58,085 nucleotides of DNA, from NCBI GenBank assembly GCA_964548205.1, contig CAZJPJ010000001.1, positions 1 to 58,085 on the forward strand. Direction: 5' to 3'. Shown here one piece after another: positions 4,741 through 17,650 of this stretch (the first letter of the stretch is position 1; every line of letters begins with the position of its first letter). Origin of the DNA: an uncultured Candidatus Saccharibacteria bacterium (GTDB lineage Bacteria > Patescibacteriota > Minisyncoccia > Phycocordibacterales > WO2-35-19). Under the pieces are notes generated by a model. The model searched no databases. It saw only the letters and a list, made by a program, of their open reading frames with translations, and was not told the DNA's origin. Both the position numbers and the translations under genes were made by a program.

Positions 4741-6603
4741 ATGAATAATATAAGAAATTTTTGCATCATAGCGCATATTGATCACGGTAAGTCTACTTTG
4801 GCCGACCGGATGCTTGAAGTTACTAAGACAATCGAAAAGAGAAAGATGCAAAATCAAGTCCTAGACAATATGGAGCTTGAAAGAGAGAGGGGAATAACAA
4901 TAAAAATGACCCCAGTGCGGATGATATATCGCCCGCAAGCTCTAAATTCTAAATCCGAAATTCAAAACGGTTTCGAATTTGGAAATTCGGATTTGGAGCT
5001 TGATTCAAAACAGTATGTTTTAAATCTAATAGATACTCCAGGGCATATAGACTTTTCTTATGAAGTGTCTAGAGCTTTAAGTGCTGTCGAAGGTGTGATA
5101 CTGCTCGTCGATGCTACGCAAGGGGTCCAAGCTCAGACTTTGTCAGTGCTCGGTATGGCAAAGGATATGAACCTCGTAGTGATACCAGTTGTCTCAAAGG
5201 TGGACTCTCCTTTGGCTATGGTAGATGAAGTAAAAGATGAAATAGCTGGAATTTTGAATATAGAAAAAGATGAAATACTTGAGGTGTCTGGTAAGACGGG
5301 TCAGGGGGTAGAGGCTTTGCTTCAAACTATAATATCTAAAATACCTTCTCCTAGTATAAATCTGGAAGCTCCTCTAAAAGCTCTGGTTTTTGATCTTGAG
5401 TATCAAACCCATACTGGGGTAACTGTGTATCTCAGAGTTGTGGATGGAGCAATAAAAGAATCTGACAATCTTTTATTTAGGATTTCTTTGGAAAAATTCA
5501 GAGCTCAGGAAGTGGGGATATTTTCACCAGACAAGAAGCCTATTAAGGAACTAAAGGCTGGAGAGATAGGTTATGTGGTTACTGGCGTCAAAAGTGCTAG
5601 AGTCACATCAGTCGGTGATACTCTTGTTCGGCAGTCTGAAAACGCTCTTCCTCTGCCCGGCCACCAAAGACCTCTACCAGTGGTTTGGGCCAGTGTCTTT
5701 CCAGAAGATCAAAATGATCTTCTGGTACTAAAACAGGCATTACAAAAACTAGAGCTATCTGACTCGTCACTTTCTTTCGAAGAAGAATCATCAGGGGTCT
5801 TGGGTAAAGGGTACAGATGTGGTTTTTTAGGACTGCTTCACCTCGAGATTATTATAGAAAGATTGAAAAGGGAATTTGACCTAGATCTGGTTATTACTCA
5901 GCCTTCTATAAACTACTTTGTGTCATATAACCAAAATGCATCTAAAGAAAAAAAAGATGAAGTCATATATTCGGCTTCATTGTTCCCAGATGATGGTGTG
6001 ATTTTAAAAATAGAAGAACCATGGATAGAGTGCAACATAGTCTCTCCTGTAGATTATGTGAACAACCTCATGCCTCTTGTTTATGAACATGAGGCAGAGC
6101 TTTCGAATACGATACAGATAGGTGATGGACGTACTACTATAGTACTGAATTTACCACTTCGTGAATTCATGAGAGGTTTCTTCGATAGGGTCAAAAGCAT
6201 CTCTGCTGGATTCGCCAGTGTATCTTATAGGCCAATCGGTATGCGGGAAGCTAATGTCACAAGGCTCGATATATTGATAAACGGTGAGGTTAATCCGATA
6301 TTTTCGAGAGTAGTTTCAAAGAGAACGGTTGAAACTGAAGCAGAAAAAACTGTTGAAAAATTAGAGAACGTGCTTCCAAGGCAGATGTTTGAACTAAAGA
6401 TCCAAGCTAAGGCTCAAGGCAGGATAATATCTTCTCGTACTATAAAAGCATTCAGAAAAGATGTAACTCAGCATATGTATGGAGGTGATATTACGCGCAA
6501 GATGAAACTCAGAGAAAAACAGAAAAAAGGTAAGAAAAAAATGCTTGCTAGGGGTAAGTTGAACATACCTCATGATGTCTTTGTAAAAATAATGAAACCC
6601 TAG
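4741..6603 (+). CDS. lepA: Elongation factor 4 (LepA)
   Basis: IIAHIDHGKSTLADR, ERERGITIK, DTPGHIDF, GFLGLLH, YGGDITRKMKL. Confidence 0.98.
   Translation: MNNIRNFCIIAHIDHGKSTLADRMLEVTKTIEKRKMQNQVLDNMELERERGITIKMTPVRMIYRPQALNSKSEIQNGFEFGNSDLELDSKQYVLNLIDTPGHIDFSYEVSRALSAVEGVILLVDATQGVQAQTLSVLGMAKDMNLVVIPVVSKVDSPLAMVDEVKDEIAGILNIEKDEILEVSGKTGQGVEALLQTIISKIPSPSINLEAPLKALVFDLEYQTHTGVTVYLRVVDGAIKESDNLLFRISLEKFRAQEVGIFSPDKKPIKELKAGEIGYVVTGVKSARVTSVGDTLVRQSENALPLPGHQRPLPVVWASVFPEDQNDLLVLKQALQKLELSDSSLSFEEESSGVLGKGYRCGFLGLLHLEIIIERLKREFDLDLVITQPSINYFVSYNQNASKEKKDEVIYSASLFPDDGVILKIEEPWIECNIVSPVDYVNNLMPLVYEHEAELSNTIQIGDGRTTIVLNLPLREFMRGFFDRVKSISAGFASVSYRPIGMREANVTRLDILINGEVNPIFSRVVSKRTVETEAEKTVEKLENVLPRQMFELKIQAKAQGRIISSRTIKAFRKDVTQHMYGGDITRKMKLREKQKKGKKKMLARGKLNIPHDVFVKIMKP
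4937..5001. repeat. Imperfect palindrome of heptamer units, in frame inside lepA
   Basis: aagctctaaattctaaatccgaaattc...gaatttggaaattcggatttggagctt; encodes ALNSKSEIQNGFEFGNSDLEL. Confidence 0.7.
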
Positions 6604-13834: not shown

Positions 13835-14437
13835 ATGAAAGGAATTATTTACATAATGACAACAGCTGTTTCTGGTCTCATAAAGATTGGTCAAAGCGGA
13901 ACAAATAACTACCAAGAACGCATGCGCTTTCTTGAGTCGAATGGTTACTACAACGTCTCTGGACTAAAAAGATTTTTTGCAATCGAAATAGATGACTATC
14001 AAGAGAAAGAGCGTTTGCTCCATGAAATATTTAGTAAACAGCAGATTGGCGATAGCGAATTATTTGCTCTTGATTATGATTTAGTGCGTCAGCTTTTATT
14101 GTCATTTGACGGTAAGGTGATTTATCCCAAAGATGTAAACAAGGAAAAAGAATTTGACGAAGTTTCAAAAGCTAGAGAACAAGGAGCAAGGTTTAGTTTG
14201 TATAAAAAAGGTATCAAAGACGGAGAAGAAGTTGTTTTTATCTCTGACAAGGAAATCACGGCAAAAGTTGTTGGTGAACGCGAAGTGGAATATGGCGGAC
14301 AAGTTTGGAAACTTTCGCCCCTTACCTATAAGATATTTGAGCAAAAAGGAAAATTAAACGAAAGTGGTGCTTACCAAGGAGCGGCGTATTGGGAGTATAA
14401 AGGTAAGAGACTCAGAGACTTACCAGAAATTATTTAA
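13835..14437 (+). CDS. GIY-YIG/T5orf172-like nuclease with C-terminal RAMA-like domain
   Basis: GIIYIMT...LIKIG...ERMRFL N-terminus; EYGGQVWKLSPL...GAYQGAAYWEYKGKRL C-terminus. Confidence 0.65.
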   Translation: MKGIIYIMTTAVSGLIKIGQSGTNNYQERMRFLESNGYYNVSGLKRFFAIEIDDYQEKERLLHEIFSKQQIGDSELFALDYDLVRQLLLSFDGKVIYPKDVNKEKEFDEVSKAREQGARFSLYKKGIKDGEEVVFISDKEITAKVVGEREVEYGGQVWKLSPLTYKIFEQKGKLNESGAYQGAAYWEYKGKRLRDLPEII

Positions 14438-14468: not shown

Positions 14469-16505
14469 ATGGCACAATCAATCGAACCAAACATCGCAGA
14501 CCTCGTAAACGGATGGCTAAAGACTTACAAGCTCGACTATAAATTGGAGATGGAGTCTTTGAATATGGAAATTGACAAAGCGCTGACTGACTACTTCACA
14601 AAAAATGGTGGTTCGGGTGCCAATCGACCTGATGCAAAACTCCTCCTGCAAGACAAAAACCTGGACTATTATCCTGTACTAATTGAGTACAAGGGCTACA
14701 AAGACAAACTGGTCAAACTCGACAGCGATGGTCAAGTAGAAAACAAAACAGCCAAGAACGAGCCGAATTTCAAAAATATCAATGGCTTTGCCGTAAACGG
14801 TGCTGTGCATTATGCAAACGCGGTGCTGCACCACACTAGCTATACAGATATTATTGCTATCGGCGTGACCGGTCACAAAGACGAAGCTGGAACAATTCAC
14901 CACCAAATTGGTGTGTACTTTGTTTCAAAAAACAACCTTGGAGCCGGGCAAAAAGTCGGCGAATACACCGACTTGTCATTCTTGAAGTCAGAAAACTTTG
15001 ATGCGTTCATCGAAAAGGTAAAAAGTCTCAGTCTTACCCAAGAAGAAATCGACAAACTCAAAGAGCAAAAGGAAAGAGAAATTGAAACAAGTCTCTTAAA
15101 GCTCAACAACGATATCTACCAAAACGAAAAAGGCATCGGAACAAATGATCGCGTCTATCTTGTGGCAGCTTCTATTATTGCAACTATCGGAGTGCCCAAT
15201 AAAGTTCCGGTACTAGAAAAAAGTGATCTAAGATCACAAACATTTGAAGGGGGACGAGACGGGGATATTATAATTGACAGGATAAATGCTTTTTTGAATG
15301 AAAGAAATTTACCAAAAGACAAGAAGAATCTAATTGTTCGAACTCTCTCAAACACATTGTTAAATGAAAACATAAACAGACCCGTCAATGGAGAAAGTCA
15401 ACTCAGACGAGTATTTTCTAAAATCGTAGACGACCTTGGTATTTACTACAAAATCGGTCTGACGACAGATTTTACCGGCAAGCTTTTTAATGAGATGTAC
15501 CGCTGGCTCGGCTTCACGCCAGACACATATAACGACGTCGTACTCACACCACCTTATGTAGCCAGGCTTTTGGTCAAACTAGCTCGTGTCAATAAAGATT
15601 CATATGTTTGGGACTTTGCTACCGGGTCGGCCGGTTTGTTAGTAGCAGCCATGAACGAGATGCTCAATGACGCCAAGCAATCCATCAAATCACCCGATGA
15701 GCTCGCGCAAAAAGAAATCAAAATCAAAGCCGAGCAACTCCTTGGTCTCGAATGGCTACCCGAAGTGTACATGCTCGCGATCCTCAATATGATTCTGATG
15801 GGTGACGGAAGCTCAAACATTCTCAATCAAGACTCCCTCAAAGACTTCGATGGCAAATACGGATTTGGCAAAACCGACAGTAATTTCCCAGCCGATGCCT
15901 TCGTGCTCAATCCACCGTATTCTGCCGCTGGTAATGGTATGAATTTCGTAGAAAAAGCGCTTAGCATGATGAACAAGGGCTACGCTGCGATCATCATCCA
16001 AAGCTCAGCAGGTAGTGGGAAGGCGAAAGAATACAACAAGCGTATCCTTGAGAAGCACACACTTATTGCCAGCATCAAAATGCCCGATAATTTGTTTATT
16101 GGGAAGTCGAGTGTGCAAACTCGTATCTACGTGTTCAAGGTAAACGAAAAGCACCAAAAAGATGAAATGGTGAAGTTTATTGATTTTTCAAACGATGGCT
16201 ATACCCGCACCGACCGCAAAAAGGCTAGTAACAATCTTAAAGATACCAATCAAGCAAAAGAACGCTACGAAGAGCTGGTGAACCTTGTGAGGTTTGGCAA
16301 GAGCAAACTCTCTATCTTTACTGAAGCCGAATACTACGAAAACACCATTGATCCAGACAATGGCGCGGACTGGAACCAATCTGCCCCTATAGACACCACG
16401 CCAACCATTGCCGACTTCAAAAAGACCGTTGGCGACTATCTCGCATGGGAAGTTGGCAATATCTTAAAACAGCAAAGTAAAAACGACCCGTCGGGAAAAG
16501 CCTAA
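14469..16505 (+). CDS. Fused restriction endonuclease/N6-adenine methyltransferase (BcgI-alpha-like, type IIB/IIG RM subunit)
   Basis: PD...IEYK nuclease motif, DFATGSAG (motif I), NPPY (motif IV). ATG 14469 preferred to the track's GTG 14364, which overlaps the upstream gene. Confidence 0.88.
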   Translation: MAQSIEPNIADLVNGWLKTYKLDYKLEMESLNMEIDKALTDYFTKNGGSGANRPDAKLLLQDKNLDYYPVLIEYKGYKDKLVKLDSDGQVENKTAKNEPNFKNINGFAVNGAVHYANAVLHHTSYTDIIAIGVTGHKDEAGTIHHQIGVYFVSKNNLGAGQKVGEYTDLSFLKSENFDAFIEKVKSLSLTQEEIDKLKEQKEREIETSLLKLNNDIYQNEKGIGTNDRVYLVAASIIATIGVPNKVPVLEKSDLRSQTFEGGRDGDIIIDRINAFLNERNLPKDKKNLIVRTLSNTLLNENINRPVNGESQLRRVFSKIVDDLGIYYKIGLTTDFTGKLFNEMYRWLGFTPDTYNDVVLTPPYVARLLVKLARVNKDSYVWDFATGSAGLLVAAMNEMLNDAKQSIKSPDELAQKEIKIKAEQLLGLEWLPEVYMLAILNMILMGDGSSNILNQDSLKDFDGKYGFGKTDSNFPADAFVLNPPYSAAGNGMNFVEKALSMMNKGYAAIIIQSSAGSGKAKEYNKRILEKHTLIASIKMPDNLFIGKSSVQTRIYVFKVNEKHQKDEMVKFIDFSNDGYTRTDRKKASNNLKDTNQAKERYEELVNLVRFGKSKLSIFTEAEYYENTIDPDNGADWNQSAPIDTTPTIADFKKTVGDYLAWEVGNILKQQSKNDPSGKA

Positions 16506-16543
16506 GCCCCCTCGACGCAAAGCTGCAAGAGGTCGAGTGGGGC
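16493..16543 (+). other. Candidate programmed -1 ribosomal frameshift signal
   Basis: Slippery G GGA AAA 16493-16499, 6-nt spacer GCCTAA, stem GCCCC-CTCGAC (16506-16516) pairing with GTCGAG-T-GGGGC (16532-16543). Confidence 0.7.
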
Positions 16544-17650
16544 GAATACAGGATCGGTGGTTTGTTTGAGATTGGAACTGGAAGCTTGGTTAATATTAGA
16601 GATGCAAAAAGTGGAGATATTCCACGTGTGTCTGTGCAAACTACCGATAACGGTATTCTCGGATATTTTGATGGATCTCTAGTAAACGCTCGATATTTTG
16701 AAAATTTCATCAGCGTAAATTTTTTTGGAGTTTCTTATTACCACCCATATCGTGCGAGTGTCGAAATGAAGGTACATACTCTAAAACTTCCAAACAAATC
16801 TCTTACAAAGTCTGAGGGAACATTTATATCTGCAATGATAAATAAGGCTTTTGATGGAAAATTTAATTATAGCACACAACTTTCAAGTTCTAAATTAAAA
16901 AATGGTAATTATACAATTCAACTCCCAACCAAAAACGGCAAGATAGATTTTGCGTTTATGGAGAGTTTTGTAGCGGAGCTGGAGGCGGAGCGGATAGCGG
17001 AGCTGGAGGCGGAGCGGATAGCGGAGCTGGAGGCGTACTTGGTCGCCAGCGGACTCAAGGACTACTCACTAACCAAGGAAGAAAAGAAGGTTTTGGTTGA
17101 GTTTGAAAAGCAGGAATTTTCTCCTTTCAAAGTCATTGATGTATTTGATGTAAAAAATACAGGTAACATCCTTTCAAGAGATATTGTCGAAAATAGCGGT
17201 GATACTCCATACCTAGGCGCAAGCGCCGACAATAACTCGGTGAGTTCGTATATATCGTACGATGAAAAATACTTAGACAAAGGAAATTGTGTCTTTATCG
17301 GTGGTAAAACATTCGTAGTGTCGTACCAAGAAAAAGACTTTTATTCCAACGATAGTCACAATCTAGTTTTGTATCTCAAAGATACTGAAAAACAGACGAA
17401 GCCAAACTACTTATATCTCGCCGCCTGCGTAAACAAGAGTTTGAAACATAAATACTCTTGGGGTGATAGCATCAGTAACAAGAAAATCCAAAAGGATACA
17501 GTCACACTTCCAGCCCAAAACGATCAGCCAGACTACGGGAAAATGGAAACTTTCATATCCGCCATTCAAAAACTGGTGATAAAAGATGTTGTACAGTACG
17601 CCGACCGCAAAATCGCCGCTACTAAAGAAGTCGTAAGCTTTAAAAGATAA
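16499..17650 (+). CDS. Specificity subunit (HsdS/BcgI-beta-like, two TRDs); probably translated as a -1 frameshift fusion to the RM subunit
   Basis: Frame open from 16481 with no ATG/GTG before TTG 16562; VEWGEYRIGGLF lies upstream of that TTG; two TRD-like halves joined by an AELEAER helix. Confidence 0.8.
   Translation, partial: SLSPLDAKLQEVEWGEYRIGGLFEIGTGSLVNIRDAKSGDIPRVSVQTTDNGILGYFDGSLVNARYFENFISVNFFGVSYYHPYRASVEMKVHTLKLPNKSLTKSEGTFISAMINKAFDGKFNYSTQLSSSKLKNGNYTIQLPTKNGKIDFAFMESFVAELEAERIAELEAERIAELEAYLVASGLKDYSLTKEEKKVLVEFEKQEFSPFKVIDVFDVKNTGNILSRDIVENSGDTPYLGASADNNSVSSYISYDEKYLDKGNCVFIGGKTFVVSYQEKDFYSNDSHNLVLYLKDTEKQTKPNYLYLAACVNKSLKHKYSWGDSISNKKIQKDTVTLPAQNDQPDYGKMETFISAIQKLVIKDVVQYADRKIAATKEVVSFKR
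16971..17035 (+). repeat. 24-bp tandem repeat (2 full copies plus 17 bp) in the inter-TRD linker
   Basis: TAGCGGAGCTGGAGGCGGAGCGGA x2 then TAGCGGAGCTGGAGGCG; encodes AELEAERI-AELEAERI-AELEA. Confidence 0.92.

Follow-up and report, generated by a model that had tools for sequence, protein, structure and literature searches.

A conserved slippery heptamer and covarying stem-loop predict programmed -1 frameshifting between enzyme and specificity subunit in a BcgI-like restriction-modification family

How is a specificity subunit produced when its reading frame offers no evident start codon? The question is posed by a restriction-modification locus in a stretch of DNA of 58,085 nucleotides from an uncultured Candidatus Saccharibacteria bacterium (contig CAZJPJ010000001.1, positions 1 to 58,085; this whole stretch is called the window below). 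Here the gene of a combined nuclease and methyltransferase (RM) is followed, in the -1 frame, by the coding sequence of its specificity subunit (S). An original prediction, made from the sequence of the window, held that the two are joined by programmed -1 frameshifting at a slippery heptamer followed by a stem-loop. Judging from the comparative evidence presented here, we consider it highly probable that programmed -1 frameshifting fuses S to RM, and that the two form one recoded gene. S is predicted to be translated solely as a C-terminal extension of RM, giving a fusion of 1060 amino acids (aa).

The RM gene ends CCG TCG GGA AAA GCC TAA (coordinates in Table 1) and thus contains the heptamer G_GGA_AAA. 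The -1 frame is open from 16481 and reads ..GKSLSPLDAKLQEVEWGEYRIGGLFEI..; counted from the heptamer it comprises 385 codons, with a stop ending at 17650. Downstream, GCCCC-CTCGAC pairs with GTCGAG-U-GGGGC in a stem of 11 bp that has one bulge, closes a loop of 15 nt and follows a spacer of 6 nt; its minimum free energy is -23.4 kcal/mol. The earliest ATG, GTG or TTG of the S frame in the window is TTG 16562, inside the first of the two target recognition domains (TRDs). A self-alignment of TRD1 and TRD2 (E = 3e-11) begins at LQEVEWGEY, 13 residues upstream of this codon, and an S protein starting there would therefore lose 13 residues of TRD1. Moreover, the TTG encodes the conserved Leu of G[DG]LF, written TTA or CTN in other loci, and is ruled out as the true start. 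The original prediction had placed the heptamer at 16493-16499, just before the RM end, and, beyond the spacer, the bulged stem at 16506-16543, and had described an open -1 frame without ATG or GTG before TTG 16562, a TRD-like segment upstream of that codon, and products of 678 and about 1060 aa. All of this is borne out by the sequence, the fusion being a predicted product. The two strands of the window together contain 766 XXXYYYZ heptamers; the junction heptamer ranks sixth among them by downstream folding energy, and it alone sits between a long zero-frame open reading frame (ORF) and a long -1 ORF.

The proteins are readily classified. RM consists of an N-terminal PD-(D/E)XK nuclease and a gamma-class N6-adenine methyltransferase; it matches Pfam N6_Mtase (1.1e-23) and, over its full length, PADLOC REase_MTase_IIG (PDLC03616, 796 bits), and the motifs P54-D55..E73-x-K75, DFATGSAG and NPPY are invariant in an alignment of 12 proteins. 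S matches Pfam Methylase_S in two stretches (1.2e-29) and PADLOC Specificity_II over residues 5-382, and position 2 of the latter profile aligns with S residue 5 past the heptamer. Neither RM nor S had a sequence match among solved structures. The system is a BcgI-like Type IIB/IIG restriction-modification system, placed by its domains and by the published name of its Helicobacter pylori members, termed BcgI-like (PMC3936762).

Homologous loci were collected in two protein-based scans of species-representative genomes, which yielded 159 loci, and in a further DNA pattern scan (heptamer, stop and stem) that added at least 120 genomes. The pooled set holds 209 distinct junctions, each after a long ORF; H. 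pylori loci were analysed separately. The first two scans, and alignment A1 (70 junctions from the first scan), are free of any pattern, and the key statistics come from these unbiased sets. A search with the fusion as query returned three architectures: dozens of clusters, 82-88% identical, in which RM has exactly 678 aa; RM joined in frame to one TRD, in proteins of about 850-890 aa; and RM joined in frame to two TRDs, in proteins of about 1052-1075 aa. Split loci with a correctly phased G_GGA_AAR at the RM stop make up 134 of the 159; another 18 are fused in frame, and 7 are split with another site sequence. Four of these 7 have A_AAA_AAA and TAA or TAG at the same position (L105, L115, L149, L153); the other three read CGA_AAG, G_AGA_AAA and G_GAA_AAG. 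The S frame reaches at least 300 codons in 172 of 187 complete cases.

Hosts belong to the Pseudomonadota, Campylobacterota, Bacteroidota, Bacillota, Mycoplasmatota, Cyanobacteriota (Melainabacteria included), Spirochaetota, Actinomycetota, Chloroflexota, Patescibacteria, Kiritimatiellia, Lentisphaerota, Cloacimonadota and Deferribacterota, and mobile carriers include plasmids of Clostridium perfringens, Arsenophonus and Acinetobacter and lambdoid prophages of Escherichia coli. RM proteins 77-88% identical to that of the window occur in more than 12 phyla, Patescibacteria and Mycoplasmatota among them, which indicates very recent and very broad horizontal transfer of the enzyme family. A few loci have clearly decayed: in L011 (around 6070) the conserved Trp codon TGG has become TAG within the 3' arm of the stem, and L048 (around 6030-6110) carries several indels past the heptamer. 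Short S frames of only about 190-227 codons past the heptamer, with one TRD, were seen in H. pylori (L285, L289, L290, L291), where they probably reflect the published phase-variable G tract, and in L015, L026, L050, L053 and L073, which may be genuine half-S forms or truncations.

The slippery site is conserved as a nucleotide signal. Among the 209 junctions the heptamer is GGGAAAA in 113 and GGGAAAG in 89 (G_GGA_AAR in 202), AAAAAAA in 4 and another sequence in 3, always in the same phase. The stop abuts the heptamer in 203 of the 209, and four have the one-codon gap seen in the window; the stop is TAG in 127, TAA in 69 and TGA in 13. The zero-frame codon before GGA varies (CTG, TTG, GAG, TCG, CCG, GTG, CAG and others), so its amino acid is variable, and its last base is always G. 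Seven H. pylori loci have a complete RM ORF, which is 678 aa long, or 681 aa in one case, and ends ACG CCC CCA AAG TGA. The heptamer C_CCA_AAG lies at the same position in these 7 loci, and the -1 frame goes on PKVIGPLSSQLNAIKWGEF. These homologues were found from primers in the supplement of PMC3936762; a junction pattern built from a primer gave no match (the primer is partly engineered), and one built from the N-terminus worked. Three canonical slippery heptamers thus occupy one homologous site, encoding LGK, LKK or PPK. As the peptide changes and the slipperiness is kept, these sequences suggest that selection at the junction acts on the nucleotides and not on the protein. G_GGA_AAG and C_CCA_AAG have been named as highly shift-prone in E. 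coli (PMC5009743). The original prediction had looked to homologues for conservation of heptamer and -1 phase, and both are conserved in about 200 distinct junctions from many phyla, with exceptions that are mostly other canonical heptamers.

The window for a shift is narrow. A stop shuts the -1 frame 0-2 codons 5' of the heptamer in 57 of 125 junctions. Five junctions have it immediately before the heptamer (TGA GGG AAA G), so that the two frames overlap in these 7 nt alone. From the heptamer onward the S frame reads GK[VI][DN]xPLxxKLxxV[EK]WGE[FY]. Upstream, a 5-mer resembling a Shine-Dalgarno (SD) sequence starts 10-17 nt before the heptamer in 60 of 125 junctions, vs 2.45% of equivalent windows elsewhere in the RM genes; the significance of this enrichment is overstated, since the region is rich in Asp and Glu codons and the loci are related, while the positional clustering is still clear. 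The SD stimulator of dnaX, about 10-14 nt upstream, occupies a similar position. A 5' SD-like element is not obligatory for -1 frameshifting.

The stem is conserved as well. In A1, an 11-12-bp helix starts 6 nt past the heptamer, and 94.8% of its cells are paired vs 35-49% for partners slid by 1-3 columns. Five pairs show double-sided changes, none of 500 shuffles reaches the observed covariation, and RNAalifold, unaided, predicts the same helix; the covariation expected by the original prediction is therefore present as compensatory changes. Changes in the 5' arm are nearly all transitions that preserve G-U/G-C pairing, even where they alter the amino acid (Pro to Ser or Leu). In the pooled set, positions 20/42 are UA in 79 junctions, UG in 61, CG in 58 and GC in 3, and never C-A. 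On the C. perfringens plasmid a Leu CTG is paired with a Gln CAG, and the window and H. pylori share an alternative register in which a G13-C50 pair and the bulged U make up for A-to-C at position 17. The median hairpin energy is -17.5 kcal/mol vs -3.2 kcal/mol for control 39-mers from the same genes, and 0 of 2340 controls reach the hairpin median. A stem that is a mere by-product of protein coding is ruled out, because the V[EK]WG motif is kept in in-frame relatives with weak stems and the 5' arm transitions preserve pairing. An intrinsic terminator or internal promoter was also rejected, as neither a terminator-like nor a promoter-like site was found at the junction on the + strand. Rfam holds no family matching the junction, its frameshift elements included.

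Natural controls are provided by relatives that have merged the two frames. In-frame relatives exist at 56-77% identity. Among them, L116, L125 and P0046/L283 have lost heptamer and stop and read the predicted junction peptide, e.g. ..LGGEVNSPLNEKLKNVEWGEF; the peptide is ..ERLKKDALLNEKLKNVKWGKY in L116 and ..KELGGEVNSPLNEKLKNVEWGEF in P0046, where it is coded TTG GGA GGG GAG GTA AAT TCT CCA CTC. The window itself is not a single ORF, given TAA 16503-16505 and the frame change. In five scored in-frame relatives (L021, L067, L116, L125, L135) the stem is weaker, at -1.7 to -10.7 kcal/mol, and its 5' arm in P0046 carries C-to-T changes. A 41%-identical system on a Ligilactobacillus salivarius plasmid has an SD sequence, AGGATGG, and after it an ATG that overlaps the RM stop; heptamer and stem are both absent. 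Consequently, the cassette of heptamer, stop and stem is a derived trait of one subfamily, dispensable after a merger of the frames or where S can start by itself.

No conserved start codon was found for S in the split loci, as the original prediction had anticipated for homologues. The position of the first ATG, GTG or TTG in the S frame varies between +6 and +393 nt. Of the 209 junctions, 124 lack a canonical start ahead of the conserved Trp, and 35 have not even a near-cognate codon there (none of ATG/GTG/TTG/CTG/ATH). Two candidates were tried and rejected. The leucine of the 'KL' motif is TTA in 69, TTG in 58, CTG in 31, CTA in 22, CTT in 13 and CTC in 12 junctions, and a TTG start at this position is ruled out because all six synonyms are used. 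In many loci an ATG comes right after the stop (TAGATG); it belongs to the RM frame, where it begins an ORF of only 7 codons. RefSeq is inconsistent about the S start: in E. coli E110019 (L160; 309 aa) it is set at an internal GTG, 69 nt downstream, on the Arsenophonus plasmid at ATA and on the C. perfringens plasmid at CTG (L160, L161, L282). A ribosomal-slippage note is absent from all three S annotations. The S family is probably mis-annotated throughout the databases.

We propose the following sequence of events, which we infer from the signal, its phase and conservation, the covariation, the missing S start and the co-transcription found in a homologue. Ribosomes translating the RM frame would reach G_GGA_AAA 16493-16499 with tRNA-Gly in the P site and tRNA-Lys in the A site, while the stem-loop 6 nt downstream would resist unwinding. 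A fraction would slip back one base, re-pair on GGG_AAA and enter the S frame, yielding the 1060-aa RM-S fusion with the junction ..NDPSGK|SLSPLDAKLQEVEWGEY; the others would stop at TAA 16503-16505 and release the 678-aa RM. In BcgI-type (A2B) enzymes, each two-TRD S subunit is bound to two RM subunits. A protomer of one fusion and one free RM would therefore be active and A2B-like, and surplus free RM could supply the extra nuclease domains for cleavage, as BcgI needs. The A2B rationale, already offered in the original prediction, fits the BcgI data (PMC3592470) and the need of an engineered EcoKI M-S fusion for extra free M (PMC3510504).

Several observations weigh against a frameshift, or against a strong one in the window. 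Taken alone, the window stem is not significant against shuffles (z = -1.42); the question of chance that this raises is settled by the comparative data. The window uses A_AAA, and A_AAG is reported as more shift-prone in E. coli; nor does it have an SD-like stimulator 5' of the heptamer (sequence ..AAAAACGACCCGTC GGGAAAA), and its efficiency may be lower than that of A_AAG loci. Loci L162-L280 were chosen by a pattern that fixes stem positions 13, 14, 18, 19 and 42-49, and all loci are related by descent and horizontal transfer, so that the counts are not independent events. In 13 of the 209 junctions the sequence is GGGAAAATGA, and in H. pylori it is AAGTGA, where ATG or GTG overlaps the stop. 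An H. pylori system engineered with a separate S start methylated DNA, at TCAN6TRG (PMC3936762), and fusion is therefore not required for S function. Finally, native H. pylori systems are reported as inactive; H. pylori S genes carry a separate phase-variable G tract (PMC3936762), and this tract explains the inactivity.

Some of these points would also suit a separate S polypeptide, made by reinitiation or translational coupling after the RM stop at an overlapping or nearby non-canonical codon (ATA, GTA, CTG). Besides the ATGA of the 13 junctions and the GTGA of H. pylori, the codon overlapping the stop is ATA in 102 junctions, PGAP at times annotates ATA or CTG starts, S is functional once given a start (PMC3936762), and the B subunit of BcgI is a separate protein (PMC3592470). 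However, the same codon is GTA, two mismatches from AUG, in 89 junctions, and 35 junctions are without any near-cognate before the conserved Trp. Reinitiation also leaves unexplained the invariant GGG, its replacement by A_AAA_AAA or C_CCA_AAG, the wobble G of the zero-frame codon before GGA, and the loss of the heptamer together with weakening of the stem in in-frame fusions. Moreover, the cassette is conserved equally in Bacteroidota loci. Bacteroidota make little use of SD-led initiation. We therefore regard reinitiation as an improbable general explanation, while some free S could arise by coupling at the ATG- or GTG-overlapped stops of a minority of homologues.

Slippage of RNA polymerase at the A run, giving an mRNA with one base fewer or two more and S in frame, appears more improbable still. 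Four homologues do have a 7-A run at the site. In the Microcystis homologue (L018), contigs from four metatranscriptome runs span heptamer and stop with no indel, and since they cross the junction RM and S lie on one mRNA of genomic sequence; this evidence is at contig level, is compatible with rare variants, and could miss them. Yet efficient slippage in bacteria needs about 9 A or T (PMC5009743 and general knowledge), most loci have G3A3-4, and the conserved phase (X_XXY_YYZ), like spacer and stem, is characteristic of frameshifting by the ribosome. The Microcystis contigs (L018 5800-6300, runs X11-X14) also diverge past the conserved junction into different TRD alleles, e.g. ..LEELFGKSTR, and the junction appears to be a boundary for TRD exchange among alleles. 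A homologue from Aggregatibacter actinomycetemcomitans was searched for in RNA runs and none was found.

That the frame break is a mere defect, be it an indel from sequencing or assembly, the decay of a fused gene or a phase-variation switch in the DNA, is scarcely credible: fused in-frame relatives, the few decayed loci and the phase-variable G tract of H. pylori S (PMC3936762) give the idea some footing, but the break recurs at one and the same nucleotide in about 200 distinct loci whose two ORFs are intact, dozens of clusters have an RM of exactly 678 aa, S is long in nearly all complete cases, and no repeat at the site is long enough for DNA slippage. An indel, which the original prediction had asked to have checked, is ruled out by these loci and by an independent Logan assembly of the source run that is identical over 16300-16700, with no difference.

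Programmed -1 frameshifting thus remains the favored explanation, and its signal resembles known ones. As in E. coli dnaX (tau/gamma), a heptamer ending A_AAR and read by tRNA-Lys is followed within a few nt by a simple stem-loop, about half of the homologues have an SD-like element upstream, and two products would come from each mRNA in a ratio that matters for complex assembly. The IS/dnaX-type geometry named by the original prediction holds in the window for heptamer, phase and 3' stem, the 6-nt spacer falling within the 5-8 nt of such signals; the SD-like stimulator of dnaX is absent there. Unlike dnaX, where the heptamer is A_AAA_AAG, these loci use G_GGA_AAR, C_CCA_AAG or A_AAA_AAA, and the frameshift product would be the longer one, gaining a whole DNA-recognition subunit. 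A 'reversed' dnaX layout with the zero-frame stop right after the site has been described (PMC5009743).

The phage tail chaperone pair G/GT is similar in its shift near the end of the first ORF, which yields a C-terminal extension at a fixed ratio, in its carriage by mobile elements and in its heptamer. Lambda G/GT uses G_GGA_AAG, and G/GT generally works without strong 3' structure. In contrast, the family studied here has a conserved, covarying 11-bp stem, and its products are enzyme subunits and not chaperones. G_GGA_AAG is also listed for g-t expression in halovirus HCTV-5 (PMC5009743).

BcgI forms an A2B protomer with B central, and free A activates cleavage (PMC3592470); like A, the RM of this family combines nuclease and methyltransferase modules, and like B, its S is Type I-like with two TRDs. 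Whereas B is a separate polypeptide, the subfamily described here has no conserved S start and a predicted RM-S fusion. The M-S fusion of EcoKI that Roberts et al. (2012) engineered ('Type IMS') is active in vivo and needs added free M in vitro (PMC3510504). It likewise joins the C-terminus of a methyltransferase to the N-terminus of S, and partial frameshifting would create the same situation naturally, but it is artificial and Type I, with a separate HsdR motor, and native EcoKI relies on a 1-nt overlap and coupled initiation instead of a frameshift. Single-chain RM-S enzymes, such as those of Campylobacter (1052-1075 aa), share the domain order and, in some close relatives, the junction peptide; they have no stop, heptamer or conserved stem and make the fusion only. 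These in-frame relatives are probably of the CjeI/AloI type.

The position of the elements discussed, together with a repeat in S that lies apart from them, is given in Table 1.

Table 1. Elements of the RM-S locus, numbered from the first letter of the window.
Feature	Position	Strand	Remarks
RM gene, zero frame	14469..16505	+	ATG 14469; 678 aa; stop 16503-16505; predicted termination product
TAA closing the -1 (S) frame	16478..16480	+	5' limit for a possible shift into the S frame
Slippery heptamer G_GGA_AAA	16493..16499	+	X_XXY_YYZ in zero-frame phase
S-subunit coding sequence, -1 frame from GGG AAA	16493..17650	+	385 codons; two TRDs and central coiled coil
Zero-frame stop TAA	16503..16505	+	One codon past the heptamer, within the 6-nt spacer
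Stem-loop	16506..16543	+	5' arm 16506-16516; loop 16517-16531; 3' arm 16532-16543; bulged U 16538
24-nt tandem repeat	16971..17035	+	2.7 copies, perfect, with a sub-period of 12 nt; codes for (AELEAERI)n within the coiled coil of the central conserved region of S; outside the frameshift signal

The tandem repeat (GC 0.62) could be a site of specificity switching. In Type I enzymes, a change of repeat number in the central region of S alters the spacer length of the recognition site (EcoR124I/II). Immediately upstream of RM, 13835-14437 (+) encodes a 200-aa protein with a T5orf172/MUG113 domain that matches the PADLOC candidate defence family PDC-S57 (8e-57), and the locus therefore lies in a small defence island. 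Window-wide controls also brought up hairpins of -22 to -30 kcal/mol after A/T-rich heptamer-like runs at about 12842 (-), 46857 (+), 48573 (+) and 54381 (+), which are probably intrinsic terminators. In E. coli, a homologue is present in 30 of 5426 complete genomes. That of strain E110019 (L160; chromosome, 1043812-1046771) is part of a lambdoid prophage, where its neighbors are the Q antiterminator on one side and the tRNA/lysis region on the other, the position of late-operon cargo, and its junction has G_GGA_AAG TAA and a good stem; it offers a convenient native system for experiments.

To our knowledge, conserved programmed frameshifts of bacteria outside IS elements and phage tail genes are few and include dnaX, copA, csoS2, cdd and prfB. 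A frameshift in any restriction-modification system was not found in full-text searches of open-access papers, the 2016 recoding review, or the GeneTack survey and its supplement, and may be described elsewhere, for example in REBASE notes. The nearest mention is by Krebes et al. (2014), who took the missing start of H. pylori S as inactivation. We judge the signal to be of a known kind, and its biological setting to be new.

That frameshift efficiency tunes restriction is speculation. In a stronger version, which we consider rather unlikely, the cassette would be a regulated switch whose efficiency depends on tRNA-Lys modification, release factors, growth or infection state, and which shifts the balance of S-bearing complexes, for methylation and site recognition, vs free RM, for nuclease activation, timing restriction vs self-protection after horizontal transfer; the TAG that follows the heptamer in 127 of 209 junctions, read by RF1 only, is relevant to a dependence on release factors. 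Were this so, it would be the first translational-recoding control element of anti-phage defence, spread horizontally over more than 12 phyla.

In conclusion, the cassette is present in hundreds of genomes that cover most of the major phyla of bacteria, and both plasmids and E. coli prophages carry it. If the fusion is made as predicted, a recoding signal would be described for the first time in a restriction-modification or defence system, and the cassette would be a compact, portable frameshift module with E. coli-type heptamers. The finding would correct a systematic annotation error, in which S is truncated or given ATA or CTG starts and H. pylori S is called inactivated, and heterologous expression of Type IIB enzymes, like methylome prediction, would have to treat S as an RM-S fusion. 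For the family itself, frameshifting would provide a natural way to set two catalytic subunits per specificity subunit from one mRNA.

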